This document shows, piece after piece, positions 8,268 through 49,285 of a stretch of 64,000 nucleotides of DNA. Origin of the DNA: Candidatus Zhuqueibacterota bacterium (lineage in GTDB: Bacteria > Zhuqueibacterota > Zhuqueibacteria > Oceanimicrobiales > Oceanimicrobiaceae). The notes beneath the pieces were generated by a model. That model saw only the letters and a program-made list of their open reading frames with translations. It made no database searches and had not been told where the DNA came from. Where the stretch lies: NCBI GenBank assembly GCA_029261995.1, contig JAJDAF010000010.1, positions 196,767 to 260,766 of the forward strand, read 5' to 3'. The stretch's first letter is position 1. The number at the start of each line of letters is the position of its first letter. The position numbers were made by a program, and so were the translations under genes.

Positions 8268-8426
8268 TCGCAGCTAAAAAGCAACCAGCGCATGAAGCAG
8301 AAGACGACCGTTTCTCCTGGTTTCGGCTTGACATCTATGCAATTATTCACTAACATGATTAACGTCTATGTTGACATAATGTTGGCTTTTTCGTCCGCAA
8401 TCCAAAAAATACGATACGCAATCCGC

Positions 8427-8897
8427 ATGGTCTGCACTCTGGTCGAGAACGTTCGAAGTCTTTACAATGTGGGTACCATCTTCCGGACTGCCGATGGCGC
8501 CGGCATATCCAGGGTTCATCTCGCCGGCATCACCGGAAAGCCGCCGCATCGCGAAATCCGCAAAGTTGCACTGGGCGCTGAGGAGCACGTTCCGTGGCAA
8601 CATCACACCGACGCCCTTGGGTTGGTGAGGGAATTGAAAGGCCGGGGCGTCCAGATTGTGGTGCTGGAAACGACGGCTGCGAGCGTACCCTACGATCAGG
8701 CCAGCTATCAATTTCCGCTCTGCCTGGTGGTGGGAAATGAGTACGAGGGCGTCAGCGAGAAGGTTCTACGCGAAGCCGACCTGATTGTCAGCATTCCAAT
8801 GTCCGGCATCAAAGTTTCGCTCAACGTCGGCGTGGCGTTTGGTGTCGCTGCATATGAAATCGTCAAACACTATCAAAGAACACTTTCGGAGGGGTAA
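8427..8897 (+). CDS. SpoU/TrmH-family RNA 2'-O-methyltransferase (TrmL-like)
   Basis: Motifs NVGTIFRTADGAGI, LVVGNEYEGVS and SLNVGVAFGVAAYE fit the SPOUT knot. The ORF track starts at a TTG/ATG at 8292, but the ATG at 8427 gives the typical ~157 aa. Confidence 0.65.
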   Translation: MVCTLVENVRSLYNVGTIFRTADGAGISRVHLAGITGKPPHREIRKVALGAEEHVPWQHHTDALGLVRELKGRGVQIVVLETTAASVPYDQASYQFPLCLVVGNEYEGVSEKVLREADLIVSIPMSGIKVSLNVGVAFGVAAYEIVKHYQRTLSEG

Positions 8898-32342: not shown

Positions 32343-33929
32343 ATGAAAAGGTTGGTCTTCTTGCTATGTGTTACAGCCACTGCTTCCGCAATCGGTCAGG
32401 TCACGCACCATGTCTCTTTGGTGGGCAATCTAAACACCGGACGCTATACAAATGATGTTTGGGGCTACGCCGACGATGCCGGCAATGAATACGCAATCGT
32501 CGGCCATCGAACCGGTACTGCGATTGTTCTCGTCACGCCAGACAGCCTGATTGAGGTCGATTTCGTTCCCGGCGTATCTTCGACCTGGCGCGACATCAAA
32601 ACGCACGGGAATTATGCTTACGTGACAGCCGACCGCGGTAACGAGGGCCTGCTTATTCTGGATTTGTCGCCTCTGCCGGACTCCGTGCGAGTTGTCGATA
32701 GATTCGCCAACGCCTTTACCCGGGCACACAACCTTTACATCGAAAACGGGCATGCCTACATTTCTGGCTCAAATAGCGCGCGCGGAGCCGACATCCTGGA
32801 TTTGGCGAATCCGGAAGTCCCGGTCGAGGTAGGCTCGATCACCTTCAATTATTTCCATGACATCTTCACCCGCAACGACACATTGTTTGGCAGCACCGAA
32901 CGCCGGGGCTCCCTCGCAATCTTCGATGTCACTGGTAAGGCGAGGCCGGCGCTTGTGGCGGAGATTCCGTTTCCCGGCGGCGGCATCTCGCACAACAGTT
33001 GGGCGACGCCTGATGGCCAGTTTGTCATGACCACAGAGGAGACCAGCGGTCAGTCGGTGAAGATGTGGGACATCAGCAACCTCGGCAATCCAACGCTGGT
33101 TGACGAATATCTGTCGGGTAGCAGGCTGGCACACAACACGCACATTCAGGGAGATTATGCTTATATCTCGCATTACGCGGATGGCGTGCGCATTCTTGAT
33201 ATTTCCGACCCCAGTCATATGGTAGAGGTTGGTGGCTTTGATACCAACGCCGGCACTTCCGGATTTGCGGGCTGCTGGGGCGCCTATCCATTTACGAACT
33301 CTGGCTACGTTTACGCCTCAGATCAGGACAATGGACTATTTGTGTTGGACTTCGACGGCACCCGCGCCACTCGAATAAACGGGCATGTTTTCGATTCTGA
33401 GACTGGCAAAATACTTAGTGGAGCCCAGGTTGAGGTGCTGGAGAATGGCATCTCTGCCATCAGTAACGTTGATGGCAAATACAAGCTTGGCCTGACCGCT
33501 GGCGGCATCTTCACCTTGAGGGTCAGCAACAATGGTTATGAAACCGCCAACGTATCGGTTATGGTGGGTGATGGCGAGACAGCCAACAAACTCATTTTTC
33601 TGAAGCCTTCCGTAACCACTGGAATCGCCGACGATTCAGGGTTGATTCCAGATGAGTTCAGCGTGGCGCAGAACTATCCGAATCCCTTCAACGGCGGCAC
33701 GACGCTGAGCTACAATCTACCGCTGACAGTCAGAGTCAAAGTGAGCATATTCAACACAGTGGGAAGCGAATTGCGAGTGTTGCAGGACGGCTTGCAACCG
33801 GCAGGACACCACCAGATTCAATGGGATGGCAGGAACGCACAGGGGCATGAGTTGCCGAGCGGGATTTACTATTATCAGATTGATGCCGCCGGTGAGGTGC
33901 TGGCCGGCAAAATGATCATGGTGAAGTAA
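32343..33929 (+). CDS. LVIVD-repeat (choice-of-anchor B) beta-propeller protein with carboxypeptidase-regulatory-like domain and T9SS C-terminal sorting domain
   Basis: A signal peptide is followed by LVIVD-like repeats (AIVLVTP, LLILDL, ADILDL, LAIFDV, VRILDI, LFVLDF). A CarbopepD_reg-like domain (GHVFDSETGKILSGAQVEV) precedes the C-terminal ~80 aa, which carry NYPNPFNGG...YYYQIDAAGE...K, matching the T9SS CTD (TIGR04183). Confidence 0.7.
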   Translation: MKRLVFLLCVTATASAIGQVTHHVSLVGNLNTGRYTNDVWGYADDAGNEYAIVGHRTGTAIVLVTPDSLIEVDFVPGVSSTWRDIKTHGNYAYVTADRGNEGLLILDLSPLPDSVRVVDRFANAFTRAHNLYIENGHAYISGSNSARGADILDLANPEVPVEVGSITFNYFHDIFTRNDTLFGSTERRGSLAIFDVTGKARPALVAEIPFPGGGISHNSWATPDGQFVMTTEETSGQSVKMWDISNLGNPTLVDEYLSGSRLAHNTHIQGDYAYISHYADGVRILDISDPSHMVEVGGFDTNAGTSGFAGCWGAYPFTNSGYVYASDQDNGLFVLDFDGTRATRINGHVFDSETGKILSGAQVEVLENGISAISNVDGKYKLGLTAGGIFTLRVSNNGYETANVSVMVGDGETANKLIFLKPSVTTGIADDSGLIPDEFSVAQNYPNPFNGGTTLSYNLPLTVRVKVSIFNTVGSELRVLQDGLQPAGHHQIQWDGRNAQGHELPSGIYYYQIDAAGEVLAGKMIMVK

Positions 33930-36444: not shown

Positions 36445-36903
36445 ATGAGTGAGAAGATTATCACAAAGAACCGGAAGGCCTGGCATGACTACCATATTGT
36501 CGATACGGTCGAGGCCGGCATTGTGCTGCTGGGTACGGAAGTGAAGGCCCTGCGCGACGGCAAAGCAAACCTGCGGGACAGTTATGCCAACGTGAAAAAC
36601 CAGGAGGTCTTTCTCTACAACGTGCATATCAGCCACTACTCGCACGGCAATCTCAACAACCACGAGCCGCTGAGGGAGCGCAAGTTGCTGCTGCACCGCA
36701 AGGAGATCAAAAAGCTCATCGGCAAGACTCAGGAAAAGGGTCTGACTCTGGTGCCGCTCAAGCTCTATTTCAAACGCGGCAAAGTTAAGGTTGAGTTGGC
36801 CATGGCCCGCGGCAAGAAGTTACACGACAAACGACATACCATCGCCAAGCGTGACGCCGACCGAGATCTGCAGCGGACTTTGAAGAGCAAAGACCAATAT
36901 TAA
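36445..36903 (+). CDS. smpB: SsrA-binding protein SmpB
   Basis: Motifs [24 protein letters not shown] and the C-terminal basic tail [16 protein letters not shown]. Length 152 aa. Confidence 0.9.
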
Positions 36904-36954
36904 TCGATCGTTAGTTCCCTCCTCTCAACAACTCATTGAGACAAGAACTCTACT

Positions 36955-38208
36955 TTGGAAGGCTGGAAGACATTGAGCAAGACTAACGTTTACGACACGC
37001 TGAAAGAGCGCGGTTTCATAAAACAGGTGACTGACGAAGATGCGGTTCAAGCCGCGCTGGGCAATAGCCAGGTAACGGCCTACGTTGGATTTGACCCCAC
37101 GGCGGATAGCCTGCACGTCGGTAATCTGCTTGGCTTGATGGCGCTGGCCCACCTTCAGCGCGCAGGGCATCGCCCAATCGCGCTTATCGGGGACGGCACC
37201 GGAATGATCGGAGACCCGAGCGGCAAGACAGAGATGCGTCAACTGCTCACGCGCGAAAAAATCGCATCGAATGCGGAGAGGATCAATGCGCAAATCAATC
37301 GCTACTTTACGATGGACGGACATGCCGGCTTTGCGGTGCGCAACGCCGACTGGCTGCTGGACCTGAATCTGGTGGAATTCCTGCGCGACATCGGCCGCCA
37401 CTTTAGCGTTAACAGAATGCTGGCCGCGGAGTCTTACAAGGTGCGAATGGAGACTGGTCTGTCGTTCATCGAGTTCAACTATCAAATTCTGCAGGCGTAC
37501 GATTTTCTGAAGTTGTTCAGAAGTCATGGTTGTACCCTGCAAATGGGCGGAGACGACCAGTGGGGCAACATTATCGCGGGCACGGATTTGATTCGTCGTG
37601 TGGAAAGCCAACCTGCTGAAGGGCTGACCTGGCCGCTCCTGACCACCGCCGGCGGCCAGAAAATGGGCAAGACCGCCAAAGGCGCGGTATGGCTCGACGG
37701 CAGCAAAACCTCGCCCTACGAGTACTACCAGTACTGGATAAACGTCGATGACCGAGATGTCGTCGCGCTCCTGAAATACTACACGTTTCTGCCAATGACT
37801 GAGATCGAGAAGCTGGCGCGGCTCGAAGGTGCTGAGATTCGTAAGGCAAAAGAGGTGCTCGCCTACGAAACCACCGAAATCACGCACGGCAAAGGTGAGG
37901 CCGATAAGGCGCGCGAAGCCTCCCGCAGCGCTTTCGGTGGCGGAGGACAGGACATCAGCGCCGTACCCACCACCGAAATGGCGTCCAGCCGTTTTGACGC
38001 CGGGGTTCTGGTGGTCGATGTGTTCGCCGAAGTGGGGCTGACTAAGTCGAAGGGCGAAGCGCGGCGGCTCATCCAGCAGGGTGGGGCTTACGTTAACGAG
38101 AAGAAGGTCGAGACAATTGACGATAGCCTGACCATTGCGAACGCCGTGGAAGGAGCACTCATGCTGCGAGCAGGCAAGAAGCGCTACCACCGTCTTATGA
38201 TCAAGTGA
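36955..38208 (+). CDS. tyrS: Tyrosine--tRNA ligase (class I, HIGH/KMSKS with C-terminal S4 domain), TTG start
   Basis: HIGH region (DPTADSLHVGNLLGLM), KMGKT (KMSKS variant), the tyrosine-binding motif GFDPTA...IGDPSGK and a C-terminal S4 domain. An alternative TTG at 36973 would give a more typical N-terminus. Confidence 0.9.
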   Translation: MEGWKTLSKTNVYDTLKERGFIKQVTDEDAVQAALGNSQVTAYVGFDPTADSLHVGNLLGLMALAHLQRAGHRPIALIGDGTGMIGDPSGKTEMRQLLTREKIASNAERINAQINRYFTMDGHAGFAVRNADWLLDLNLVEFLRDIGRHFSVNRMLAAESYKVRMETGLSFIEFNYQILQAYDFLKLFRSHGCTLQMGGDDQWGNIIAGTDLIRRVESQPAEGLTWPLLTTAGGQKMGKTAKGAVWLDGSKTSPYEYYQYWINVDDRDVVALLKYYTFLPMTEIEKLARLEGAEIRKAKEVLAYETTEITHGKGEADKAREASRSAFGGGGQDISAVPTTEMASSRFDAGVLVVDVFAEVGLTKSKGEARRLIQQGGAYVNEKKVETIDDSLTIANAVEGALMLRAGKKRYHRLMIK

Positions 38209-38560
38209 GTCAGTCACGCTGCAGAACCACCTGCAATCCAGTTGCGGCAGCGATCTGCGCCAGGAGCTATTTTTTCCTTGAATTCGTTGCAAAATATTCA
38301 TTTCTTCCCCAATCGTAATTGTAACTACTAGGATTGCACGTGGTTCATCTGAAGTTCCTGCGAAGATCTTCGATTGGCTTTGTGAGTTCACTCCGGGTGG
38401 CAGATGGGCTCTGGAGGGTTCGGAACAGGCCACTTGACATTGAACAAAGAGTTGTTGATTTGATGCAAATTGTTTGTATGGCCCGCTTGCCGTCTCACCG
38501 TCAGGTCTTCACGTCGCCATGTGTAAACAATCGATTTCTGCAAAAGCGAAGGAGAGAAAC

Positions 38561-39808
38561 ATGCGATTTGCGCAACGCAACATAATCACCCTGAACACGG
38601 TTTTCCTGACCACGCTCATACTCGCTGCTTGGGCCGGACGTGGCGTCGCCCAGGAGATTCCGGAGTCGGTGCTGGACATCTTCGATGAAAGCTGTGCGTT
38701 CTCTGGCTGTCATGCCGGTCCGAATTCCCCGAATGGCCTGGATTTGACGGAAGATTTTGCCTTGGCGTCGCTCGTAAACCGGCCGAGCCGCGACTTCGGA
38801 AACGAAATCTTAAGAGTGCAGCCGCGGAACCCGGCGCGTAGCTATCTCATAATGAAAATAAAAGACGACCCGGCTATCAAAGGCGGAAGTATGCCGCAAA
38901 ATGGCAAGCCCTTGCCATCGTCTCAAGTCAAAATTCTGGAAGATTGGATCAATTCACTACCGGCTGATTTGAAAGCAAAGTCGCCGGCGCGAGAATACGC
39001 CGAAGCGTTTGCCGGCGTGTCGCTCTCGACCCTGCCGACGACACAGACGCTCGAGAAAGGCTTTTTTGCCTACCGGATTTCACACAGATGGCGCGGCAAT
39101 GTCAAGAGCGGCTTCGCCAATTTCTACGGCCTCGATGGCGGCGCGAGCATCTTTACGGAATTGCTATTTGCTTTGAACAACGATTTGAGCGCGTCGGTTG
39201 GGCGTGCGAATCAGGATGCAACATTTGAGTTTGCCGGCAAGTGGCGATTCCTGAAGGAAAAGTCGAGTGGCGGCACGCCGATTTCGGCCGCACTCGTGGC
39301 TGGGCTCGACTGGAACACACGCAAGAATCCCATCGGCGTCACCGGACCGCTGGACCGTACGGACAGCGAACGATTTCATTGGTTTGCGCAAGTGCCTCTG
39401 TCAAAACAGGTGCACGATAAGTTTTCCATTCTGTTTGTTCCGGGCGTGCTCCTCAACGGCAATGTGCAACTGGATGATGAAGATGCTATCGTCACTCTCG
39501 GCTTCGGCGCCAGGCTTCACTTTGGGTCGGATTTCTCCCTGTTTGTGGAAGGCGTTCCCATCGTTGCCGGCTCAGACGGAGCCGCTGTAGTCGGAGGCCC
39601 TCGACCTGAAAGGGGGGACCGGGTGTTTAACGACGGCTTCACCGTGGGCCTCGAGAAGCGCGTCGGCGGTCATGTTTTTCATGTTTACCTGACTAACTCG
39701 CTAGGGTTGGCCACCAGCCACTCCATGAGCGGCGCTGACTTTGATTTCACCGAGCGCGATCTGCGATTGGGTTTTAACATTTACAGGACCCTGCGTTTGC
39801 CGTTCTAG
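38561..39808 (+). CDS. Fused PSCyt1-like domain (atypical C-x4-CH putative heme motif) + outer-membrane beta-barrel; Cyc2-like porin-cytochrome architecture
   Basis: The ATG at 38561 is preceded by an RBS (aaggagag). After the signal peptide (TLILAAWAGRGVAQE) comes a ~110-aa domain (IFDESCAFSGCHAGPNSPNGLDL...SMPQNGKPLPSSQVKILEDWI) that fits the planctomycete cytochrome C (PSCyt1) pattern but with CX4CH. The C-terminal ~250 aa are amphipathic beta-strands ending in the OMP-signature terminal Phe (...YRTLRLPF). The ORF track start at 38474 (TTG) is upstream. Confidence 0.5.
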   Translation: MRFAQRNIITLNTVFLTTLILAAWAGRGVAQEIPESVLDIFDESCAFSGCHAGPNSPNGLDLTEDFALASLVNRPSRDFGNEILRVQPRNPARSYLIMKIKDDPAIKGGSMPQNGKPLPSSQVKILEDWINSLPADLKAKSPAREYAEAFAGVSLSTLPTTQTLEKGFFAYRISHRWRGNVKSGFANFYGLDGGASIFTELLFALNNDLSASVGRANQDATFEFAGKWRFLKEKSSGGTPISAALVAGLDWNTRKNPIGVTGPLDRTDSERFHWFAQVPLSKQVHDKFSILFVPGVLLNGNVQLDDEDAIVTLGFGARLHFGSDFSLFVEGVPIVAGSDGAAVVGGPRPERGDRVFNDGFTVGLEKRVGGHVFHVYLTNSLGLATSHSMSGADFDFTERDLRLGFNIYRTLRLPF

Positions 39809-39888
39809 TCGGGAACATTCCACGCAACTAAAGTGTTGAGCAGGTCGCGGTCAACATGTGAGTACAGATTTTATGGAGATTCAGGGAC

Positions 39889-40305
39889 ATGAGGCACACT
39901 GCTTTCTTGAGCACGATTATTCTCGCCGTCAGTTTGATCGCGGCATGTGAGCACAGCAAGACGCTGGCCCCCGAGGCCGCTGAACCAACACTTTCCAACA
40001 TTCAGAATACCATTTTCAGTCAAAAATGTGCCACTTCGGGGTGCCATGTACCCGGCGGCAACGGCCCGATGCCGATGCGTACGAGCCAGGAATCGTTTTC
40101 CAATCTAGTGGGCGTGCCCGCAAGCCAAAGTACCGGCCTGAACCGGGTGACCTCGGGAGATCCCGACAACAGTTATCTGCTACAGAAGCTGGAAGGCGCG
40201 CCGGGCATTCAGGGCGAACGGATGCCTCTTGGCGGCGCGGCCCTCGCCGGTGAACAGATCGAGTTGATTCGCGACTGGATTTCGACCGGAGCTGCGAACA
40301 ATTAG
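39889..40305 (+). CDS. Lipoprotein with stand-alone PSCyt1-like domain (C-x4-CH motif)
   Basis: A lipobox (SLIAACEHS) precedes FSQKCATSGCHVPGGNGPMPM...ERMPLGGAALAGEQIELIRDWISTGA. This is paralogous to the N-domain of the upstream gene with the same CxxSGCH spacing. Confidence 0.5.
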   Translation: MRHTAFLSTIILAVSLIAACEHSKTLAPEAAEPTLSNIQNTIFSQKCATSGCHVPGGNGPMPMRTSQESFSNLVGVPASQSTGLNRVTSGDPDNSYLLQKLEGAPGIQGERMPLGGAALAGEQIELIRDWISTGAANN

Positions 40306-40353
40306 CCAGAATTACCAAGGTTCGAATAACAAAGAAAACTTGCGGAGGTTAAT

Positions 40354-40986
40354 ATGAAGAAGATGATTTTACTGATCGCGGCAGGCGCTGCATCACTCAT
40401 GTTTCTGGCCATTCAGGAGTCAAAACTGCCGGCAAAAACCAGCAATCTGCGTTTGACTCAAATCGCCGGCCTTGAGCTGTTTGAACTCAAGGGCTGCACC
40501 GCATGCCACACGCTTGCGGGCAAAGCAGAAGTAACGCGTACACCGGTTGCAAACAATCGAGATGATGTCTGGTTCAGCGACCACGTTGGGTCCGAGTCCG
40601 AACTTGTGCTCGGCCAGGCCAAAAAGAAACGCAAGAAAAAGAAGCTACTCAAGAAGGAAGTTGCAGCGCTCAATGATTTCCTGTTCGAGTCAGACAGTGC
40701 CGCCAAGAAGCAGATTTTCGGACTCGCAGCAAACCTCAGAAATGGCGCCTACCTGGCCTACCAAAATAACTGCATCGGCTGCCACAGGATCGCCGGTGGA
40801 GGGAAGGAAACCGCGCCCGATTTGACTTTTGCGGCTGACAAGAAAAGCGACCGGAGCTGGCATATCAAAAATCTCAAAAACCCGCAGCAGTTTTCCGCCG
40901 AATCCGTGATGCCGGCGTTTGATGAAAAACTGTCGGATGAGCAGCTTGGGCAGATTGCGGACTACCTGCTGACGCTCAGGAAGTAG
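40354..40986 (+). CDS. Diheme c-type cytochrome (two CXXCH), periplasmic, with poly-lysine linker
   Basis: A signal/anchor precedes the heme motifs CTACH and CIGCH, with a Met ligand candidate (SVMPAF). A K-rich linker (KKKRKKKKLLKK) separates the two heme domains. Confidence 0.7.
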   Translation: MKKMILLIAAGAASLMFLAIQESKLPAKTSNLRLTQIAGLELFELKGCTACHTLAGKAEVTRTPVANNRDDVWFSDHVGSESELVLGQAKKKRKKKKLLKKEVAALNDFLFESDSAAKKQIFGLAANLRNGAYLAYQNNCIGCHRIAGGGKETAPDLTFAADKKSDRSWHIKNLKNPQQFSAESVMPAFDEKLSDEQLGQIADYLLTLRK

Positions 40987-41213
40987 GAAATCTAAACTGG
41001 CATTTGCAACTGGACCAATGAGCGCACTGATGACCAGCTCTTCGATTCCATTTCCGGCGGCTCAGGCAAATGTCAAAGTTTAGAAAAAAACTTCCGCCGG
41101 ACGAAATAAACGCGGCGGTCAGGTTTGTTCGCAGATTTAGAGAAAGATGGACGAAGTTCCGACACTCGGAAGTGACACAACTTTTTTTCTTGACTCATCG
41201 ACCAGGAATTTGA

Positions 41214-41714
41214 TTGCAGATATTCGACAAACAGTCTGACACGGCTGTTCCGCGCAGGCGCTTCTTGAAGGTGGGAATTGCCGCGTTGAACGGTTTTATT
41301 GCTTTTGCACTTGCGATTCCTGGACTCGGCTACTTGCTGACACCAGTTTTGCGGCGTTCGGATGGCGCCTGGATTCCTCTGGGGAATGCCTCGAGTTTGC
41401 AGAGTGCTGAGCCCCGCAAAGCCAGCTTCAAATACACCACCACGGAAGGCTACTCGCGCAACGAGAAAAACGGATTCGCATGGGTCGTCACGGACACCGA
41501 AGAAGCCTCGGGTATTTCGGCTTTTTCGGCAGTTTGTTCCCACACGGGCTGCAATGTCACGTGGCAGTCAAGAGAAAACCATTTCGTTTGTCCCTGTCAT
41601 GACGGACGGTACGACAGACGCGGCGCCGTGGTCTCAGGGCCGCCGCCGCGACCGTTGAGCAAGCTGGCCTTGAAGATGGAGAATGGCCAGGTGTTTGTGC
41701 GTTTGCCGTCGTGA
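41214..41714 (+). CDS. petC: Rieske [2Fe-2S] iron-sulfur subunit of cytochrome bc-type complex (Tat signal)
   Basis: A twin-arginine motif (RRRFLKVGIAAL) and TM anchor are followed by Rieske box I CSHTGC and box II CPCHDGRY. Confidence 0.85.
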   Translation: MQIFDKQSDTAVPRRRFLKVGIAALNGFIAFALAIPGLGYLLTPVLRRSDGAWIPLGNASSLQSAEPRKASFKYTTTEGYSRNEKNGFAWVVTDTEEASGISAFSAVCSHTGCNVTWQSRENHFVCPCHDGRYDRRGAVVSGPPPRPLSKLALKMENGQVFVRLPS

Positions 41715-41768
41715 TGGTGCTAAAGATAGAAGACGTCCTGCGAACTCATAACTGACAAATGACCTGAG

Positions 41769-43430
41769 ATGGAGCCCAATAAAAAAGGATTGTTGCAAGC
41801 GTTCAATCGTTTCCTGAAGGAGCCGATGCCAAAGGGTGTGAATTGGCCGAACGCGCTTGGATCCTGCTTGCTGGCGCTGGTGGTGGTTCAGGTAATCACG
41901 GGAATCCTTCTCTCTCTTTACTACTCCCCAAATGCGGATGTCGCCCATGACAGCGTGCGCTTTATCGAGCAGCAGGTTGTGTTTGGCAGTCTGATTCGCG
42001 GCATCCACTATTTTTCCGCCAGCGCGATGATGGTGGTCATCTTTCTACACCTCGCCCGCACATTTTTTTCCGGGGCATACAAACCGCCGCGCCAGTGGAC
42101 TTGGATTTTCGGCGTGGCTCTGTTGCTGGTGGTGGTCGGTTTTGCCTTTACCGGTTACCTGTTGCCCTGGGACATGAAAGCCTATTTCGCAACCAAAGTC
42201 GGGCTCAACATCGCCGGGATGACGCCGATAGTTGGCGACAGTCTGAAGCGAATCTTGCAGGGCGGCAGCGAGTTGGGCATGCTGACGCTGTCACGCTTTT
42301 TCGCCTTGCACGTGGTCGTTTTGCCGCTGTCTCTCGTTCTATTGATTGCCTTGCACATCACTTACATCAGGATGCACGGTCCAACGCCGCTGGGTCGTGG
42401 GGGCGAGCCAGGCCAAGTTTCCGGTACCTTTTTTCCACAGCAACTTTTCCGAGATTCGGTGGTGGCGGCTGGCGTGATTGGCCTAATATTCGTGCTGGCT
42501 CTCAAGTTTGGCGCGCCATTAGAGGCGCCGGCGGATCCCAACGACACCAGCTACATTCCTCGTCCGGATTGGTATTTCTATGGCGCGTTTCAGCTTTTGA
42601 AATTGTTTGAAGGGCGATTCGAAGTGGTTGGCGCCATCGTTTTGCCCGGGCTGTTTCTGGCTGTCATGGTGTTGCTTCCATTCCTTGATCGCAGCCCCGG
42701 CAGATCCCTCAAAGACCGCCCGGCTGTGGCCTCGATTGGAGCCATTGCCTTGTTGTCAATCGTCATTCTGACCGCGGTTGGGGCCTACACCGGCGAGAAA
42801 CAAAAGGAGAGCCTGACCTCCGACCGGTCAGTCGTCGATGTTGAAGGCGAGATCGAAGAGACTTTTGTGGTCGATCCGGCCATTGGCAAGCAGCTTTACG
42901 ATGGGCTGAAGTGTGCTGAATGTCATGCCCTGGCCTCGGAAGGCGTTAACAATCCGCCGGGCCTGGAGTTTTCGGGAAACAAGTACCGGCAGTCCTGGCT
43001 GGTGGCCTATTTGCAGCAACCGCACCGCGTACGCTGGCAGGGCAAGAACCGGCGTCCGGTTGCGCGCATGCCCAATTTCGATCTCACGGATCGGGAAGCC
43101 CTCAATCTCTCAGTCTACCTGCTCGAACTGCGGCGGGATAACAAATTCCCCGAACCTGAATTTGACTGGGCGGAAGCGGACAGCGAAATGGTAGATTCCG
43201 GAAAAGAGCTGACCGTAGATTACGGCTGCATGGGCTGCCACCGCATCGGGGACGAAGGCCAGAACGTCGCCCCGGAGTTGAGTCATGCGGGTAGCAAGTT
43301 GCGGGAAGCCTACCTGTTCAGCATCGTTCAAGAGCCAGACAAAGTCGTGCCCGGAACCTCGATGAAAAACTTTCAGCTCGAAGTTGAGGATATTGAGGAT
43401 ATCGTGGCATACTTGCGGCTCTTGGAGTAA
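41769..43430 (+). CDS. petB: Cytochrome b (b6/subunit IV-like, PDWY Qo motif) fused to C-terminal diheme cytochrome c
   Basis: The N-terminal half has cytochrome b helices with conserved His pairs (FLHLARTFF, ALHVVVLP, ALHITYIRMH) and the PDWY motif (IPRPDWYFYG). The C-terminal ~170 aa carry CAECH and CMGCH and end in a typical cytochrome c helix (IVAYLRLLE). Confidence 0.85.
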   Translation: MEPNKKGLLQAFNRFLKEPMPKGVNWPNALGSCLLALVVVQVITGILLSLYYSPNADVAHDSVRFIEQQVVFGSLIRGIHYFSASAMMVVIFLHLARTFFSGAYKPPRQWTWIFGVALLLVVVGFAFTGYLLPWDMKAYFATKVGLNIAGMTPIVGDSLKRILQGGSELGMLTLSRFFALHVVVLPLSLVLLIALHITYIRMHGPTPLGRGGEPGQVSGTFFPQQLFRDSVVAAGVIGLIFVLALKFGAPLEAPADPNDTSYIPRPDWYFYGAFQLLKLFEGRFEVVGAIVLPGLFLAVMVLLPFLDRSPGRSLKDRPAVASIGAIALLSIVILTAVGAYTGEKQKESLTSDRSVVDVEGEIEETFVVDPAIGKQLYDGLKCAECHALASEGVNNPPGLEFSGNKYRQSWLVAYLQQPHRVRWQGKNRRPVARMPNFDLTDREALNLSVYLLELRRDNKFPEPEFDWAEADSEMVDSGKELTVDYGCMGCHRIGDEGQNVAPELSHAGSKLREAYLFSIVQEPDKVVPGTSMKNFQLEVEDIEDIVAYLRLLE

Positions 43431-43953: not shown

Positions 43954-46900
43954 ATGCAGTATAAGCTACTAAGTTCTCTAGTTGTCCTGGTTATGTGCAT
44001 CGCGGCTTTTGGTCCCGCGGTTGCTCAACCTGCCAAGACGCCGCCCGTTGTTACCGGTCCGCAAACACTCTCAGGTTTCGGGGGCAACGCCGGCCTTTAC
44101 GAATTTTTGACCCAGGGAGAGACGGCGCGAGGCGACATCGGTGGCATCTCCACCGCTGAAGATTATTGGGTTTACATCGTCGGAATCGATGCCAGTGGCG
44201 TCACAGGACCCGACGGGCGTCAGATTCAATTCAATTTGCAGAATACGATTCAGGGCGAGACCGAACACCTTGGCATCAGTTTCTCGCTGGACAATCCTGA
44301 CATTGGCGGGTTTGACCTGCTGGAGTGCTACCAATCCAACGGCGGCGGATTGCTGACCCATGGCCTGGTGAGTGCTTCCCTCGATGTCACGGTTTTTGAC
44401 TTGCGTTTCAACTTCTCCAAAGACAACGCGGAAGACGGTTGGACCGTCACACCCTACTATCGCCTGTCGGGCGGTAGTTGGACCCCCTTCTCTGGTGGCT
44501 CGTTCACCGGCAACCCTGCCTTTGATTTCGACGAAGCCAAACTGACTGTCTTCTTTACGAATTCCATCGCAAATTCCGACGCCGCGGACGGCCAGGTCGT
44601 GTTCGACAACTTCTTTGTGCTCGGGCCAATTCCAGAGCCGATCACGGTCGTTTATGTTGATGATGCCTGGCAGGGTCTCGCACCGGGTGACGCAGTGCAA
44701 TTTCCCGGGGAGGACGACGTTCGGGTTATGGGGGTGAATGCATTCGCTACGATTCAGGAAGGCATCGATTCCTTTATCCAGATGCCGCCGGCAGCTCTCA
44801 GGGAAGACAGACTTTTGCCGCAGGCGGAAGCTGTTGAAGAAATCACGGTACTCGACTTAAATGTTGCGCCTGGAACCTACCAGGAAAATGTGGTCATTCC
44901 CTTTCCAGCACGGCTTCTCGGCTCTGGTAGCGGCAGCGACCCGCTGCAAGACACGATCATTGAGGCCGACCCTCAGAATACCGGATTTCCTGTCATCGAT
45001 ATTGCTGGTTTTGCGCCCGGCGGTGTTTCAGTTAATTCCCGCCTGGAGATTAGAGATCTCAGAGTCACTGGTGCGGTTGGCTCTGGAGATGCACCCAGCG
45101 GCATCTCCATCACCGCCGATGGATTTTTCGATGTCGCGGCCCAAGGCGCGTTGCAGGCCAGTGCCGCCGCCGGCGTATCGGTAATTCAATTCATGACGTT
45201 CAACAACGTCACCGCGGTCGATAATTCGGGCCACGGGATTGCTGTGAATTCTGACGGAATCGTGAGTGACCTACGCGTGGTCAATTGCGAGGTCTCGAAT
45301 AACAGCAACCACGGCATTTTCATCTCCTCCAGCATTGCATCATTCGACAGCCTGATTGTCGATAGCTGCACCATCGAGGACAACGGCATCACCGGAATTA
45401 CCTCAGGGCCGCAGGGTTCTCAGAATGTGGACAACATCCATATCAGTAATTCGACGCTTTCCAGAAATGGCGATGCACTCAGTCCTTCCGGTAGCGGTTC
45501 CGGCGATATCAGCCTGTTCGACTTTAACAGTGACGCTTCAATCACCAACGTTGATGTAACGGGGAACGGCGCGCACATCGGCATCCAGATTCGCGGTGTC
45601 GATAACGCAGGCACTTCTCCGGCGGGCAATGTCCAACTTGACGATGTCACCATTTCCGGGCAGTACCAGCATCCCAATACCTGGGTCGGCTCCGGACTTT
45701 TTATCGCCAACTTCAGTTCACTAAGCAGTGTCGGCCTGAACAATGTTCAGATCGATGTTTCGCCCGTGTCGCCCTCGAAGGATGTCATCAACCTTTATAA
45801 TGATAATATCGATGGCAGCCTGGACATTGGCAATATGCAACTGGGCGGCAATGCTGACCTGGATATTTTGAACAGCGCACCCGCTTCCGTGGATGCCAAC
45901 GATGCGGTGTTCACCAACGCGGCAGACAATTTCGAAATCGAGGACCGCATCTTCCATGGTCTCGATGACAATAGCGTCGGCTTGGTGCGCTGGACGGGCA
46001 ATCAGATTTATCTCACCGCGACAACTTTTTCAGCGCCGGATACCGCGGTAGTTCTCGACAATATCCTTTCTGTTGTGGATAACGGTGACACGCTGAACTT
46101 CGGCGCCGGCAATTACTACACAACTGCCGGGGCGGTGATCAGCAAGAGCCTGACCTTCTTCGGCGGCGCAGGCGTGATTTGCCGGCCACTTGGGGCCACG
46201 TCTGGCGCCTGGGTTACGGTGGATACACTTGTGACTCTGAATCTTGATAGCATCATCTTTGATGGTGCCGGGTACGACATCGGCATCGGCTGCCTGGTGA
46301 GAGGTCGCGGTTATTGCCGTAACCTGACCTTCAGGAACATAGTGGACGACAACGGCGGCGGCATTGCCCTGTGGCTACGCGGCGACCAGCCTGTTGAAGT
46401 TTCCGGCACCACCTTCAGCAATATTGGCGGCCTGTCCCCAGGTGGGTCGATCGCCTACGGCGCCTGCTTCACGGGAACTGGAGTTGTGGGGTCCACCTAT
46501 CGTGGTAACACCTACGTTGGCCGCGGTGCGGGAGCATGGGTTGAATATGGCCTGTTTCTCGATGCAGGTGCGCAGGTGAACATTGTCAGCAACACCTTTT
46601 ACAACCTGCTCGGTTTCACGAGTGTCGAGGGTGTCGTCGGGTCAGCCGGGATTTGCGTGGTTACCAATGGCGGTGGCGGCACATCTGCTTCCATCGACAG
46701 TAGCACAATCTACGACTGCTACAACGGAATCAAAGTTGGCGAATTCGATGGGGACCAGAGCTTCGCGATTATCAGGGATACGGAAATCTACCAGAGCACC
46801 GTTGGCCTTTGTATTGGCGGCGCGTTGTTTGTGAAGGCTGAGGACAACGACATCCACGGCAATGGCACCGGCGTTGTGGTGCGAAATGCCACGGTCTTTG

Positions 46901-48204
46901 ATCTCGACCGCGATCGCATCCAGGATAACGACGACGGCATCATTGTTGAAAATTCGTTTGGCGAAATTGACGAGTGCATCATTTCCAATAATTCAAGTGT
47001 TGGCTTGAGCATCTCGGATGAGTCCAGCACCGGCGTGACCGTGCACCGCAATGAATTCTGCACCAGCGGCGAAATGGGCATGGAGAATCTGGGCCAAACC
47101 ACGGTTGACGCCACCACCAACTGGTGGGGGGACTTCAATGGTCCTGGTGACCAGGGACCCGGCAACGGTGACGGCGTTGGCGTTGGCGTTGACTACAGTA
47201 ACTTCGAAACCAGTAGCCTGTTTGTGGATTCTCCGTGTTCGGAGTTGGCGTTGTGTGAGAACGATGGGGATGTGAATAACTCAGGCAGTCTAACCGCTCT
47301 CGACGCATTAGCAGCTTTCTCTATAGGATTGAACGGAGGCACATTGCCAGCTGAATTTGACGAGCCGGGATTCGAATGTGAAGTCTTGGCTGCAGACGTC
47401 AACTGCAACGGCAGTGTTACTGCGTTAGATGCGCTTGATATCTTCGAACGAGCCTTAGCCCAGTTACCGCCCTCTGCTTGTTTTGCGGGACAGTTGAAGT
47501 TGGACAAAGTAGTGGGCTCGCCACGAATCTCCTTGCTGGCGGTGGAGAGCGGCGCAGAAGAGACTGACAAAATCCGGGTAGCACTGGCTGCCTCCAACTC
47601 GAGTGGGCTTCGTGCCTTCAGTACAACGCTGAAGTTTCCGGCAGAGAGAGTTGATTTTCTTCGCGTGGAGCGCTCTGAAATGACCTCGGATTGGGCTCAG
47701 CTCGATGGTAAGGTACAGAAGGCAGGTGAATTGACGGTCGCTGGATTCAATGTCGAATTTGAAGAATCCAGCGAGTCAACGATTCTCTTTACCTTGGTTT
47801 TCAAGAAGAAGGATGAAGTTGGCCCCATTGAGATTGAATTGACCGGTGCGTATGATGAGCTAGCTGGAGCCATTTGGGAAAGGACCGTGGTCGATGGGAA
47901 TGTAGCTACTCCTGAGGTGTTTGCACTGCGCCAGAATTACCCCAACCCCTTCAATCCTGAAACTCTGATTGAGTACGATATCCCCAGTATCAGCCACGAG
48001 AAGGTGCCAGTGCGACTGACCATCTACAATGTAAAAGGACAGATCGTTCGAACGTTAGTAGATGCACAGAGATCGGTTGGTGCTCACAAGGTTAAGTGGG
48101 ACGGCAGAAACGACCATGGTTTGCAGGTTCCGTCCGGAGCCTACTTCTACACCATCAAAGCCGGAGATTTTAAAGACACAAAACGAATGATGCTGGTGAA
48201 ATAA
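43954..48204 (+). CDS. Giant secreted right-handed beta-helix (pectate-lyase/NosD-like repeats) protein with dockerin-like, cohesin-like and T9SS C-terminal sorting domains
   Basis: A signal peptide is followed by long arrays of parallel beta-helix repeats (NNSNHGIFISSS, IEDNGITGI, IHGNGTGVVVRNA, IQDNDDGIIVEN, ISNNSSVGLSI). A dockerin-like duplicated Ca-binding segment (DVNNSGSLTALDALAAF / DVNCNGSVTALDALDIF) and a cohesin-like module (aa ~1190-1310) follow. The C-terminus reads QNYPNPFNPET...YFYTIKAGDFKDTKRMMLVK, a T9SS CTD. Confidence 0.7.
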   Translation: MQYKLLSSLVVLVMCIAAFGPAVAQPAKTPPVVTGPQTLSGFGGNAGLYEFLTQGETARGDIGGISTAEDYWVYIVGIDASGVTGPDGRQIQFNLQNTIQGETEHLGISFSLDNPDIGGFDLLECYQSNGGGLLTHGLVSASLDVTVFDLRFNFSKDNAEDGWTVTPYYRLSGGSWTPFSGGSFTGNPAFDFDEAKLTVFFTNSIANSDAADGQVVFDNFFVLGPIPEPITVVYVDDAWQGLAPGDAVQFPGEDDVRVMGVNAFATIQEGIDSFIQMPPAALREDRLLPQAEAVEEITVLDLNVAPGTYQENVVIPFPARLLGSGSGSDPLQDTIIEADPQNTGFPVIDIAGFAPGGVSVNSRLEIRDLRVTGAVGSGDAPSGISITADGFFDVAAQGALQASAAAGVSVIQFMTFNNVTAVDNSGHGIAVNSDGIVSDLRVVNCEVSNNSNHGIFISSSIASFDSLIVDSCTIEDNGITGITSGPQGSQNVDNIHISNSTLSRNGDALSPSGSGSGDISLFDFNSDASITNVDVTGNGAHIGIQIRGVDNAGTSPAGNVQLDDVTISGQYQHPNTWVGSGLFIANFSSLSSVGLNNVQIDVSPVSPSKDVINLYNDNIDGSLDIGNMQLGGNADLDILNSAPASVDANDAVFTNAADNFEIEDRIFHGLDDNSVGLVRWTGNQIYLTATTFSAPDTAVVLDNILSVVDNGDTLNFGAGNYYTTAGAVISKSLTFFGGAGVICRPLGATSGAWVTVDTLVTLNLDSIIFDGAGYDIGIGCLVRGRGYCRNLTFRNIVDDNGGGIALWLRGDQPVEVSGTTFSNIGGLSPGGSIAYGACFTGTGVVGSTYRGNTYVGRGAGAWVEYGLFLDAGAQVNIVSNTFYNLLGFTSVEGVVGSAGICVVTNGGGGTSASIDSSTIYDCYNGIKVGEFDGDQSFAIIRDTEIYQSTVGLCIGGALFVKAEDNDIHGNGTGVVVRNATVFDLDRDRIQDNDDGIIVENSFGEIDECIISNNSSVGLSISDESSTGVTVHRNEFCTSGEMGMENLGQTTVDATTNWWGDFNGPGDQGPGNGDGVGVGVDYSNFETSSLFVDSPCSELALCENDGDVNNSGSLTALDALAAFSIGLNGGTLPAEFDEPGFECEVLAADVNCNGSVTALDALDIFERALAQLPPSACFAGQLKLDKVVGSPRISLLAVESGAEETDKIRVALAASNSSGLRAFSTTLKFPAERVDFLRVERSEMTSDWAQLDGKVQKAGELTVAGFNVEFEESSESTILFTLVFKKKDEVGPIEIELTGAYDELAGAIWERTVVDGNVATPEVFALRQNYPNPFNPETLIEYDIPSISHEKVPVRLTIYNVKGQIVRTLVDAQRSVGAHKVKWDGRNDHGLQVPSGAYFYTIKAGDFKDTKRMMLVK

Positions 48205-48244
48205 GGGCCAGCTTCATTCCTTGTTCAAAAAAGGAGATTTAGGT

Positions 48245-49285
48245 ATGATGAGCATTTTTCGACCGGCGAGTTGGCTGCTTTCCGCGACCACCTTTGTATC
48301 GCTAGCGTTTGGCCAGCCCCAGCTTGATCTTAGCCCGCCACTAAGCGTGGATGTGGAGCCACCGCCAGGACAGACGGTGATAATCCCGTTGACGTTGACT
48401 AATACGGGCGCAGAGCAAGTCAAAGCTGTCACTTTCGATTTCACCTTTCCGACTGCTAATCTGACGTATGTCGGGCTTGACACTGTTGGCACGCTGACTG
48501 GTGGCTGGACTCAAATGTCGGGACAGGAAAACACGCCGGGCGTGGTCTCAATACTGGGTTTCGGTAGTGTTGCTGCAGCTCAGACAGGTGTCTTGGTGAA
48601 TGTAACGTTTCAGTCGAAAGACCAATCTGGTGTTGGTCTTCTGCAACTTAGCAACTTCCAGGATCACGTCGCCGGCGCCACCACCACCGACGGCACCCTC
48701 AACAGCACCGTCCCAGTCGAGCTTGCCTCGTTCTCCGCCCAAATCGCCGACCAGGCAGTTGAGCTGAGTTGGCTCACCATCAGCGAAAGCAACAACTTCG
48801 GCTTCGATGTTGAAGAAAGCGCGGACGGCGAAGCTTTTACAAAGATCGGTTTTGTGAAAGGCCACGGCACCACGCTGGCCGAGCAACGCTACCAGTTTAT
48901 CGATAGCGACGTGCGGCCCGGCGCCCACTACTACCGGTTGAGGCAAATCGATTTCGACGGCGCCTTTGAATATTCCAGCACCCTGCAAGTGAACATGGCC
49001 GCGCCGCAGACGTTTGCCCTGGCGCAGAACTACCCGAATCCATTCAATCCGGAGACGGCGATTCAGTTTGCCGTGCCTGAAGCCGCGAGCGTGCAAGTGA
49101 CGATTTACAATGCGCTCGGCCGGGCAGTTCGAACTCTGGTAAACGGCGAGTTTGCTCCCGGCACCCACAGCGTCACCTGGGACGGCCGAGACGACAATGG
49201 CCAGCAGGCCGCGAGTGGACTCTATCTTTACACTGTCAAAGCCGGCAAGTTTGTACAGACGCGTAAGATGATTATGCTTCAGTAA
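48245..49285 (+). CDS. Cohesin-like domain protein with T9SS C-terminal sorting domain
   Basis: The ATG at 48245 has an RBS (aaggag). A signal peptide and a cohesin-like beta-sandwich (VIIPLTLTNTGAEQVKAVTFDFTFPTANLTYVGLD...VNVTFQSKDQSGVGLLQLSNF) precede a C-terminal CTD (AQNYPNPFNPETAIQF...LYLYTVKAGKFVQTRKMIMLQ). The ORF track start at 48221 is TTG. Confidence 0.6.
   Translation: MMSIFRPASWLLSATTFVSLAFGQPQLDLSPPLSVDVEPPPGQTVIIPLTLTNTGAEQVKAVTFDFTFPTANLTYVGLDTVGTLTGGWTQMSGQENTPGVVSILGFGSVAAAQTGVLVNVTFQSKDQSGVGLLQLSNFQDHVAGATTTDGTLNSTVPVELASFSAQIADQAVELSWLTISESNNFGFDVEESADGEAFTKIGFVKGHGTTLAEQRYQFIDSDVRPGAHYYRLRQIDFDGAFEYSSTLQVNMAAPQTFALAQNYPNPFNPETAIQFAVPEAASVQVTIYNALGRAVRTLVNGEFAPGTHSVTWDGRDDNGQQAASGLYLYTVKAGKFVQTRKMIMLQ

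Follow-up and report, generated by a model that had tools for sequence, protein, structure and literature searches.

A predicted CX4CH cytochrome domain fused to a DUF5777 outer-membrane beta-barrel as a candidate Cyc2-like electron-entry module

A gene on the + strand (38561–39808) of the window, the whole stretch of 64,000 nucleotides of DNA that was analyzed, encodes a protein of 415 aa in which a signal peptide, a single c-type cytochrome domain and an outer-membrane beta-barrel of the DUF5777 family appear to be combined in one polypeptide. The fused protein is likely to connect the outer membrane with the electron-transport chain of the cell. In our preferred reading, for which we estimate a probability of roughly one half, it would be an electron-entry module that resembles Cyc2 but is built from non-homologous parts, with a haem domain that is tethered to a DUF5777 channel and feeds electrons inward. 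We infer haem binding, topology, substrate, partners and the direction of electron flow from gene, domain, motif, fold and neighborhood evidence.

The ATG at 38561 was preferred as start codon over the TTG at 38474, which would give a longer ORF, because the ATG is preceded by a Shine-Dalgarno sequence (AAGGAG, 38549–38554, + strand, read from the sequence) with a spacer of 6 nt and because the homologues start at the same place. Residues 1–31 (38561–38653) resemble a signal peptide with R2 and R6 ahead of a hydrophobic core. This call was made by eye and from the alignment, in which the position of the segment is kept across homologues but its sequence is not; in the AlphaFold2 model, residues 2–25 form a single helix. 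The following segment (residues 32–132, 38654–38956) is predicted to be a FoxE-like or PSCyt1-like monohaem c-type cytochrome domain. It is connected by a linker rich in Pro, Ala, Lys and Glu (residues 133–149, 38957–39007), which lies outside the Pfam DUF5777 match and varies in sequence and length in the alignment of homologues, to the predicted barrel (residues 150–415 plus stop codon, 39008–39808).

The putative haem site and its relationship to FoxE

C45 and C50 are the sole cysteines in the whole sequence of the fused protein and belong to the motif CAFSGCH (C45-x4-C50-H51, 38693–38713, + strand), while CXXCH is absent from all 415 aa. Invariance and the alignment to FoxE mark the motif as the putative site of covalent haem attachment, with H51 as proximal His. 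In 67 full-length homologues (mean column identity 49%), the columns of C45, C50, H51, G53, M111 and P112 are invariant, and 63 of the 67 contain C-A-x-x-G-C-H, so that a conserved CX4CH in place of CXXCH, as originally predicted, is confirmed and a chance occurrence of the motif can be dismissed. Since CXXCH occupies the same alignment column in 4 of the 67 homologues (P0022, P0038, P0039 and P0070), CX4CH is, as judged from the alignment, a haem site with a two-residue insertion. The exchange of both spacings at this one column occurs in orthologues and paralogues alike. M111-P112 (38891–38896, + strand) contains the putative distal (axial) Met ligand; it is also invariant in the family of the adjacent lipoprotein described below and aligns with the Met-Pro of cytochromes c6 and c-552. 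The model of the N-terminal domain has a pLDDT of 91.9 and class-I-like helices, and in the numbering of the domain model the elements follow the class I order (helix 6–17, C16/C21/H22, M82 loop, helix 91–103). The layout is thus that of a class I c-type cytochrome, with a spacing of x4 instead of x2, and conservation and fold together point to haem binding at C45-x4-C50-H51. In the field, CX3CH and CX4CH are routinely scored as haem motifs.

The gene directly downstream (39889–40305, + strand) encodes a paralogous stand-alone FoxE-like cytochrome lipoprotein of 138 aa with a lipobox (Cys20), the motif C-A-T-S-G-C-H and RMP, which matches no Pfam family and is 34% identical to the N-terminal domain of the fused protein over 98 aa (E 5e-18). 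A profile of this lipoprotein family matches both repeats of FoxE (E 7.6e-11) and, in hydrazine synthase alpha, the C-terminal haem domain (PDB 5C2V, E 7.7e-5). FoxE was out of reach for a profile of the fused proteins alone (E 28 and 67), and a whole-protein profile gave only insignificant matches to cytochromes c-552 and c-555 among the PDB sequences. In the alignment, CX4CH lies on CIICH and CTTCH of FoxE with the first Cys offset by 2 residues, and M111-P112 lies on RMPLG and RMPPG; the motif therefore sits at the CXXCH position of homologues and of FoxE, which is the haem context that the original prediction had presupposed. Among solved structures, these comparisons place FoxE, and not a PSCyt1 protein, nearest to the haem domain. 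FoxE of Rhodobacter ferrooxidans SW2 (PDB 5MAB) is a dihaem protein and putative Fe(II) oxidase. It is soluble, resides in the periplasm, contains two tandem repeats with CXXCH motifs and is encoded together with foxY and foxZ. The present proteins share a homologous haem-binding repeat with FoxE, but the two copies are not joined in tandem in a soluble protein: one is fused to the barrel and the other is encoded by the lipoprotein gene, both with CX4CH. Neither foxY (PQQ protein) nor foxZ (transporter) is among the neighbors, and the genes upstream are smpB and tyrS. The sequence relationship is thus homology at the level of the domain, not orthology. A literature search for FoxE in combination with KSB1 returned marker-gene hits only.

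The wider domain family comprises 40,149 clusters at E<=1e-3, and in view of this size, and because a profile of the fused proteins alone misses FoxE, resemblance to FoxE argues only weakly for iron oxidation. The best 150 proteins of the wider family contain 195 CX4CH and 192 CXXCH motifs, and the original view of CX4CH as an oddity of the fused protein therefore has to be abandoned. One member of a neighboring family has C-x5-CH, a spacing without established haem binding. The original prediction had further described the domain as PSCyt1-like, of which a distant relationship can be retained. The PSCyt1 HMM (PF07635), which has 59 positions and is built around CXXCH, did not match the fused protein at E<=1 in the Pfam scan, weak matches below threshold were obtained for 5 of 37 homologues (best E 1.7e-4), and the lipoprotein at locus L050 reached 15.6 bits, under the gathering threshold of 22 bits. 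Membership of the fused protein in PSCyt1 was rejected on these grounds. PSCyt1 domains are mostly found together with PSD1/PSCyt2.

It would be very surprising if the two cysteines formed a disulfide or metal site in a domain without haem. For this explanation speak the lack of any match of the fused protein to a cytochrome family in Pfam or NCBIfam, the C-x5-CH spacing, and the first Cys, which in the combined alignment of fused proteins and lipoproteins is nearly invariant (>=90%) only. It conflicts with the replacement of CX4CH by the canonical CXXCH, at that very position, among orthologues and paralogues, with the invariance of the His and the downstream Met-Pro, with the homology to both haem repeats of FoxE and the class I cytochrome fold, and with the acceptance of CX4CH as a haem motif.

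Neighboring genes and distribution of the fusion

The lipoprotein gene is followed on the + strand by three further genes for electron-transfer proteins, all as described in the original prediction, and no terminator-like site was found on this strand between 38561 and 43430. The first encodes a dihaem cytochrome c of 210 aa (40354–40986; CTACH and CIGCH; Pfam Cytochrom_C, Cytochrome_CBB3 and FixO); its N-terminus forms a hydrophobic anchor or signal, and it has a poly-Lys linker. Next come a Rieske [2Fe-2S] subunit (41214–41714; PF00355, E 2.8e-11), which has the twin-arginine motif RRRF and resembles b6f-type Rieske models of NCBIfam, and a fusion protein of 553 aa (41769–43430; PF00033, PF13631, PF00032 and, twice, PF00034), in which a cytochrome b6-like part, a subunit IV-like part and a C-terminal dihaem cytochrome c (haem motifs CAECH, CMGCH) are joined.

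Homologues were detected in KSB1, Calditrichia and Rhodothermales, every one found being MAG-derived, and fused forms occur in 50 or more loci. From KSB1 to Rhodothermales, the lipoprotein is the most conserved neighbor of the fused homologues, and the downstream dihaem cytochrome c is kept in the neighborhood classes A1 and A2. The combination of lipoprotein, dihaem cytochrome c, Rieske protein and cytochrome b is present at this locus and about 10 further loci, an amicyanin/plastocyanin-like cupredoxin accompanies the lipoprotein and the dihaem cytochrome c in 13 loci, and a 10-haem LVIVD protein is found with a trihaem, an Fe-S and a decahaem protein in 7 loci; in a fourth type of neighborhood, the lipoprotein paralogue is the only one of these partners. 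Adjacency to bc-complex genes is restricted to the nearest subclade (51–64% identity), and in other clades a cupredoxin or the decahaem cluster takes this place, which rules out a linkage to the bc complex as a trait of the whole family.

The barrel and the cytochrome also occur in other combinations. Two loci contain split forms with the lipoprotein cytochrome beside a barrel-only DUF5777 protein (L050 and L069), one DUF5777 barrel is fused to a cupredoxin with weak similarity to CopI (P0074), another is fused to a choice-of-anchor V domain with CXXCH (L056), and a further one adjoins a Rieske lipoprotein (L046). Together with the fused forms, these arrangements speak for a functional coupling between cytochrome and barrel. 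Genes for SCO1/SenC and Fur are located near barrel-only members. A redox neighbor for every DUF5777 barrel was ruled out by a barrel-only member of the Bacteroidota type (P0073), which lies among housekeeping genes. Searches of the literature on DUF5777, on Coneutiohabitans, on multihaem proteins and the outer membrane of KSB1, and on PSCyt1/PF07635 turned up no account of the fusion architecture and no paper on DUF5777 itself. This supports the originally proposed idea of an undescribed electron-transfer module linked to the outer membrane.

The DUF5777 barrel and the place of the cytochrome

The barrel that had been postulated for the C-terminal region is predicted by PF19089 (DUF5777, 'membrane bound beta barrel'), which matches residues 150–410 with an E-value of 2.8e-47 (161.5 bits, cutoff 23.1) over model positions 1–246 of 247; the proposed three-part architecture of signal peptide, cytochrome-like domain and outer-membrane beta-barrel is thereby upheld. 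DUF5777 was matched in 37 of 37 scanned homologues, and the fused protein has no other Pfam family, Autotransporter included. Further support comes from the AlphaFold2 model (pLDDT 89.7). The barrel has about 12 strands and a conserved N-terminal segment (150–167), which may plug or thread the pore, and ends with ...LRLPF. Relatives are named 'DUF5777 family beta-barrel protein' by NCBI. In this Pfam family without assigned function, typical members from Bacteroidota consist of the barrel only and have about 300 aa, whereas the present subfamily carries the cytochrome as an additional N-terminal domain. Identity to the 12-stranded barrels of FapF, KdgM/NanC, COG4313 channels and the beta-domains of type Va autotransporters is 7–13%, with no matches of the family HMMs; in contrast to these barrels, the present one carries a redox domain as cargo and lacks a predicted helical plug or linker. 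The best structural match of the barrel is FapF.

In the preferred reading, one c-type haem domain would be joined by a variable linker of ~17 residues to the 12-stranded DUF5777 barrel, with the haem on C45-x4-C50-H51 and M111 as its probable distal ligand. The predicted strands, with short turns on one side and long loops on the other, fit the standard outer-membrane topology, in which the N-terminus of the barrel, and with it the cytochrome, would face the periplasm where a small channel opens. By analogy to the mechanism proposed for Cyc2, a small soluble reductant may enter the narrow barrel and be oxidized by the tethered haem. Fe(II) is the most plausible candidate, and other metals or diffusible shuttles might also serve. 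Because one haem on the periplasmic face is not enough to move electrons across the membrane, this model depends on a substrate that diffuses. The conserved basic residues of the barrel (R172, R176, R215, R229, R402 and R409) do not obviously favor a cation such as Fe2+. Electrons would then pass from the fused protein to the lipoprotein cytochrome, the dihaem cytochrome c and the inner-membrane Rieske/cytochrome b proteins or an oxidase encoded elsewhere in the genome, although they could also flow outward instead. Since the repeats of FoxE exchange Met ligands (PMC10654088), the domain on the barrel may pair with that of the lipoprotein in a dihaem heterodimer that resembles FoxE.

Alternatively, the barrel may merely retain and position a periplasmic carrier, so that the fused cytochrome, the lipoprotein and the dihaem cytochrome c would serve as ordinary tethered carriers that connect the bc complex with periplasmic or inner-membrane terminal reductases or oxidases, and nothing would cross the barrel. 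We consider this unlikely, though it accommodates a good part of the data: unrelated N-terminal domains are found on the same barrel, including 'choice-of-anchor V', which is named for alternative anchors, the linker varies and is flexible, a complete bc complex is encoded in the operon, and barrel-only members without redox context exist. In addition, tethered carriers often replace soluble ones in this superphylum. However, many polar residues (H175, R215, H371, N379, D395, N406 and R409) as well as the loop FGLDGGA are invariant even in barrel-only members, which would not be expected if the barrel were a passive anchor. The adjacent paralogue has a lipid anchor, which would be a far cheaper tether, and the neighborhoods with decahaem and multihaem proteins look like clusters for extracellular electron transfer rather than core respiration.

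The invariant H175 and H371, together with the nearly invariant H374, may also be taken as signs of a small outer-membrane metal channel, for example for Fe or Cu, with the redox domain acting as ferric reductase or cuprous oxidase in uptake or detoxification and not in energy metabolism. The cupredoxin fusion with its weak similarity to CopI and the SCO1/SenC and Fur genes near barrel-only members fit this function. We nevertheless regard it as improbable, given that the conserved partners are electron-transfer proteins and not metal transporters, chaperones or regulators, and that the match to PcoB is far weaker than those to generic 12-stranded barrels.

Like type Va autotransporters, the protein ends in a 12-stranded beta-domain, which raises the question whether the barrel exports its own N-terminal cytochrome. 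The linker would then remain in the pore and a monohaem domain at the surface, possibly together with a surface lipoprotein, would contact minerals or extracellular multihaem cytochromes. In favor of this scenario, segment 146–159, which is conserved and confidently modeled by AlphaFold2, forms isolated beta-bridges ahead of strand 1. An extracellular role would also agree with the neighborhood of 10-haem LVIVD and decahaem proteins, with the mostly surface-located choice-of-anchor domains, and with the acidic residues directly after the lipid-Cys of the lipoproteins (C-E-H or C-D-E), which recall surface-export signals of Bacteroidota. We still see little chance for this scenario. The Pfam Autotransporter family does not match, an alpha-helical pore linker is not predicted (DSSP assigns no helix in residues 133–167), and FapF has a periplasmic N-terminal domain. 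The c-type haem is attached and the protein folded in the periplasm, which makes passage of a holo-cytochrome of ~100 aa through 12 strands unlikely, and the electrons would still lack a route across the membrane.

Comparison with Cyc2 and significance

To our knowledge, Cyc2 is the only well-characterized fused cytochrome-porin. Like the iron oxidase Cyc2 of Acidithiobacillus ferrooxidans and Mariprofundus PV-1 (Keffer et al. 2021, PMC8406198), the protein combines a signal peptide, a single predicted N-terminal c-type haem and a C-terminal outer-membrane barrel in one polypeptide. Predictions place the haem where a narrow pore opens to the periplasm, and relatives adjoin genes for a dihaem cytochrome c and often a blue-copper protein, which corresponds to the cyc2-cyc1-rus parts list. 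No sequence homology to Cyc2 was found, and of the diagnostic features of Cyc2 in sequence and barrel type, only the N-terminal signal peptide is present. The sole haem motif is CAFSGCH instead of a single CXXCH. The motif [A]XPXFAR[Q/K][T/Y] 5 aa upstream of the haem motif, which is the inclusion criterion of Keffer et al. (PMC8406198), is absent, the upstream sequence being EIPESVLDIFDES and the homologue consensus IPDxVLDIFDxx. Likewise, there is no PXL motif 4 aa downstream, where the sequence AGPNSPNGLDL contains no P-x-L at that spacing. The haem would be held by a complete class-I-type domain of ~100 aa and not by a short segment, and the barrel is a 12-stranded DUF5777 barrel, closest to FapF/KdgM, and not a 16-stranded OprO/OprP-like one. 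Membership in Cyc2 was rejected because of the missing motifs and the missing 16-stranded barrel. A likeness to the porin-cytochrome complexes MtrAB/MtrCAB, PioAB and MtoAB is seen in one paralogue clade (7 loci), in which the barrel gene lies directly beside the decahaem gene, and this adjacency suggests a role in outer-membrane electron exchange. In those complexes a 26-strand barrel sheathes the decahaem protein, which a 12-strand barrel cannot do, and here the barrel bears its own single haem domain.

More speculatively, the fused protein might be the founding example of a second, independently evolved class of cytochrome/outer-membrane-barrel oxidoreductases that is widespread in KSB1, Calditrichota and Rhodothermales/Bacteroidota. 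The FoxE-type CX4CH domain, tethered to a 12-stranded DUF5777 channel, and the lipoprotein paralogue would together rebuild a FoxE-like, Met-exchanged dihaem unit. This unit would oxidize a soluble extracellular reductant, Fe(II) or another, at the mouth of the barrel and feed a chain of tethered cytochromes that leads to the bc complex. We put this extended version forward as a tentative and rather doubtful proposal; if it were true, cytochrome, cupredoxin and choice-of-anchor V haem domains would share DUF5777 as their general outer-membrane module.

The gene cyc2 is the main genetic marker for inferring iron oxidation in metagenomes, and the FeGenie marker set with its Cyc2 and FoxE models may miss the lineages considered here. 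The system is compact, with two to five genes, and amenable to heterologous expression. If the preferred reading is true, the design of a cytochrome fused to a barrel would have arisen more than once, and a function for DUF5777 and a role for an unannotated cytochrome-domain family of ~40,000 clusters would be found. It would also imply an unrecognized outer-membrane redox capacity in abundant uncultured phyla of sediments and hot springs (KSB1, Calditrichota, Rhodothermales).

The cytochrome-barrel gene and its surroundings

The ORF at 38561-39808 (+) encodes 415 amino acids, and its ATG follows the Shine-Dalgarno sequence AAGGAG at a distance of 6 nt. A longer ORF from a TTG at 38474 was discarded because of this Shine-Dalgarno sequence and because the homologues begin at the same position as the ATG. 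The N-terminus resembles a signal peptide, and PF19089 (DUF5777, 'membrane bound beta barrel domain') is the sole Pfam family in the protein (residues 150-410, E 2.8e-47), with no Pfam or NCBIfam match for residues 30-140. The mature protein has two cysteines only, C45 and C50, both within C-A-F-S-G-C-H, and CXXCH is absent from the whole sequence, bearing out the original prediction of a signal peptide, a CX4CH in place of CXXCH and a barrel in one ORF. The downstream genes had been recognized correctly as well, as domain searches and motifs indicated: a 138-aa lipoprotein (39889-40305, +) with C-A-T-S-G-C-H, a paralogue of the fused N-terminal domain (34% identity, E 5e-18), a dihaem cytochrome c (40354-40986, +), a Rieske protein with a twin-arginine motif (41214-41714, +) and a 553-aa cytochrome b6/subunit IV/dihaem-c fusion (41769-43430, +). 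No terminator-like site was seen on the + strand of 38561-43430, which hints at co-transcription.

The dihaem cytochrome carries a basic run, AKKKRKKKKLLKK, between its two haem domains (about residues 89-101), and such a poly-lysine linker is unusual for a periplasmic cytochrome. Among NCBIfam models, the cytochrome b fusion comes closest to ExtP, a b-type cytochrome from an operon for selenite/tellurite reduction, but at 214 bits (E 1.6e-63) it stays under the 290-bit cutoff. Directly upstream of the operon lies the smpB-tyrS pair (36445-38208); its synteny with the operon recurs in related MAGs of KSB1 and 'Calditrichaceae' (loci L002, L014 and L053) and supports a KSB1-like origin of the window. 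A 502-aa ORF (36925-38433, -) antisense to tyrS (36955-38208) is almost certainly a shadow ORF rather than a gene. Beyond the operon, 43954-48204 (+) encodes a beta-helix protein of 1416 aa that has a dockerin-like segment and, at its C-terminus, a T9SS-type domain. The protein encoded after it (48221-49285, +; 354 aa) combines a cohesin domain with a T9SS sorting domain, and the two are possibly a cohesin-dockerin pair on type IX secretion cargo.

The N-terminal domain and its relationship to FoxE

A word-indexed search retrieved 74 homologues. Where the source gave a name, it is 'DUF5777 family beta-barrel protein', 'hypothetical protein' or, for P0039, 'mono/diheme cytochrome c family protein', and the source is a KSB1 or Calditrichaeota MAG. 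When 67 full-length homologues are aligned (mean column identity 49%), C45, C50, H51, G53, M111 and P112 are invariant, so the Cys and His residues of the motif are retained throughout; C-A-x-x-G-C-H occurs in 63 members and canonical CXXCH at the identical position in four. CX4CH and CXXCH interchange likewise in the stand-alone lipoprotein family. This is the pattern expected of a haem-attachment site with a two-residue insertion, for which the Met-Pro about 60 residues downstream would be the putative distal ligand. Genome studies of iron oxidisers already count CX3CH and CX4CH among haem motifs. A rival reading, judged unlikely, is that the domain binds no haem.

The domain family is very large: HMMER, run over all 1.84 billion representatives, returned 40,149 clusters at E<=1e-3, of which 14,401 reached E<=1e-10, and members frequently hold 2-8 tandem copies. 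The best 150 proteins contain 195 CX4CH motifs, mostly C-A-x-x-G-C-H, together with 192 CXXCH and 11 CX3CH motifs. The earlier view of CX4CH as an atypical spacing found in a few multihaem cytochromes therefore does not hold here: it is a common variant in the domain family, not confined to the window gene. It is apparently undescribed; we found no literature on DUF5777, on a cytochrome-DUF5777 fusion or on CX4CH in FoxE/PSCyt1-like domains, and public annotation of the homologues goes no further than 'DUF5777 family beta-barrel protein'.

The AlphaFold2 model of residues 30-145 (pLDDT 91.9) has a class I layout, in which the N-terminal helix ends at the Cys motif and the Met lies in the loop preceding the C-terminal helix. 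A few homologues gave sub-threshold matches to PSCyt1, Cytochrom_C or Cytochrome_CBB3. Searched against the sequences of PDB structures, a profile that combines the window domain with the lipoprotein family matched both repeats of FoxE (E 7.6e-11) and the C-terminal haem domain of hydrazine synthase alpha (E 7.7e-5). The alignment to FoxE pairs RMP.G, PGDP..S and WI..GA, and the first Cys of FoxE falls two residues later than in the window domain. A profile of fused N-terminal domains alone did not reach FoxE (E 28 and 67) and the window domain as single-sequence query gave no matches, so the sequence link is transitive, via the lipoprotein paralogue. The likeness to FoxE is one of homologous domains and no evidence of orthology. 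In FoxE, the Met of each repeat ligates the haem of the other repeat (PMC10654088), and the 53 residues from His to Met in both numberings (H95 to M148 in 5mab, H41 to M94 in the Rhodoferax protein) fit this exchange. A FoxE-like heterodimer of the barrel-tethered and lipoprotein domains is an attractive idea and, if true, would account for the conserved pairing of the two genes.

The DUF5777 barrel and its redox partners

The C-terminal barrel of the original prediction was recovered by the PF19089 match and by the AlphaFold2 model of the full-length protein (pLDDT 89.7, pTM 0.79, about 12 long strands). Structural comparison matched KdgM (17.0), a COG4313 channel (16.4), autotransporter beta-domains (14.5-15.9), a designed 12-strand barrel (14.3), NanC and LpxR, and Foldseek concurs, so a 12-stranded outer-membrane barrel is predicted. 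One rival reading is an autotransporter-like display of the cytochrome on the surface. In the model, the short turns (205-208, 284-287, 321-324, 369-370) lie on one side and the loops opposite are long and variable, which fits the standard topology with both barrel termini periplasmic; most simply, the cytochrome domain would reside in the periplasm on a variable tether of about 17 residues. If the barrel were an anchor only, as one rival reading has it, the invariance of many polar barrel residues, among them H175, R215, H371, N379, D395, N406, R409 and the FGLDGGA loop, would be hard to understand, because it extends to barrel-only members; it argues for a role beyond anchoring.

Cytochrome and barrel are also coupled outside the fusion. 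In L050 (Calditrichia) the two are separate genes, one for a lipoprotein cytochrome with CX4CH and one for a barrel-only DUF5777, and a gene for a YceI-like protein stands between them in the row. On the contig L069 (Bacteroidota-type), a homologous 131-aa lipoprotein (4550-4945, +) with SPMPKG, WIREG and C-G-S-Q-G-G-C-H, a C-x5-CH spacing without established haem-binding status, directly precedes a barrel-only DUF5777 (4989-5882). The barrel is fused to a cupredoxin in P0074, adjoins a Tat/lipobox Rieske protein in L046 and, in a 450-aa protein of Acidobacteriota (L056, 7356-8708, +; 91.5 bits, cutoff 42), follows a choice-of-anchor V domain with CXXCH (CNSCH), with similar loci in L057-L062. 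P0073 is an example of a member with no redox neighbour at its locus. Choice-of-anchor V is the third unrelated haem/redox domain joined to this barrel. The YceI-like (polyisoprenoid-binding) protein of L050 lies at 8333-8917 (+), and in L037 (Calditrichia) another one precedes the fused gene by about 860 bp; YceI is frequently paired with cytochrome b561 in other bacteria. A SCO1/SenC gene is located about 2 kb upstream of the L069 lipoprotein.

Genomic contexts and proposed function

Scanning one genome per species (185,579 species) yielded 59 loci, all from MAGs of KSB1, Calditrichia and Rhodothermales/Balneolaceae, and of Acidobacteriota for more distant barrel relatives. By tblastn with genes of the window and of other loci, the full-length homologues fell into four recurring classes: A1 (fused - lipoprotein - dihaem c - Rieske - cytochrome b; window and about 10 loci, 51-64% identity to the window protein), A2 (amicyanin/plastocyanin-like cupredoxin - fused - lipoprotein - dihaem c; 13 loci, 43-52%), B (10-haem LVIVD protein - trihaem - cNMP/4Fe-4S protein - decahaem - fused; 7 loci, 41-48%) and C (fused - lipoprotein only; Rhodothermales, Balneolaceae and Calditrichia, 32-39%). 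Several KSB1 genomes harbour one class A and one class B copy. Consistent association with bc-complex genes is thus a feature of class A1, not of A2, B or C. Of all partners, the lipoprotein paralogue is best conserved. These contexts support a redox role at the outer membrane. The class B LVIVD protein (about 1250 aa; L063:84-3857, L066:44-3676) joins an LVIVD domain to a cytochrome with about 10 haems and resembles ExtM. An LVIVD-repeat protein is also encoded in the window (32343-33929, +), where it has a T9SS sorting domain.

Cyc2 is defined by a signal peptide, one CXXCH with PXFAR[Q/K][T/Y] five residues upstream and PXL downstream, and a 16-stranded OprO/P-like barrel (Keffer et al., PMC8406198). 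The fused protein shares the signal peptide alone; it has CX4CH instead of CXXCH, lacks both flanking motifs and has a predicted 12-stranded barrel, which excludes it from Cyc2. The proposed Cyc2-type topology therefore stands as design (signal peptide, haem-type domain, barrel) and falls as homology, as the origins of both domains differ.

The rus operon of Acidithiobacillus encodes an outer-membrane cytochrome-barrel, a dihaem cytochrome and a blue-copper protein, a parts list that class A2 shares, and class A1 is reminiscent of the petI operon (dihaem c and bc1); both comparisons are no more than analogies. From an architecture and a conservation that are solid, we infer a function for which a Cyc2-like device is the best-supported model: a small soluble reductant would cross the narrow barrel and reduce the tethered haem, and electrons would pass along tethered carriers, the lipoprotein cytochrome and then the anchored dihaem c, to the Rieske/cytochrome b complex or an oxidase; reverse electron flow could also occur. 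Fe(II) would be the leading candidate substrate, for which the evidence is circumstantial: the relationship to FoxE, the rus-like context and the decahaem context. Basic residues occupy several conserved positions on the lumen side and are not obviously suited to a cation such as Fe(II). Metal handling by barrel and redox domain is a rival reading. The concept of a fused cytochrome-barrel is already known from Cyc2, and the window fusion is a variant of it rather than a new category.
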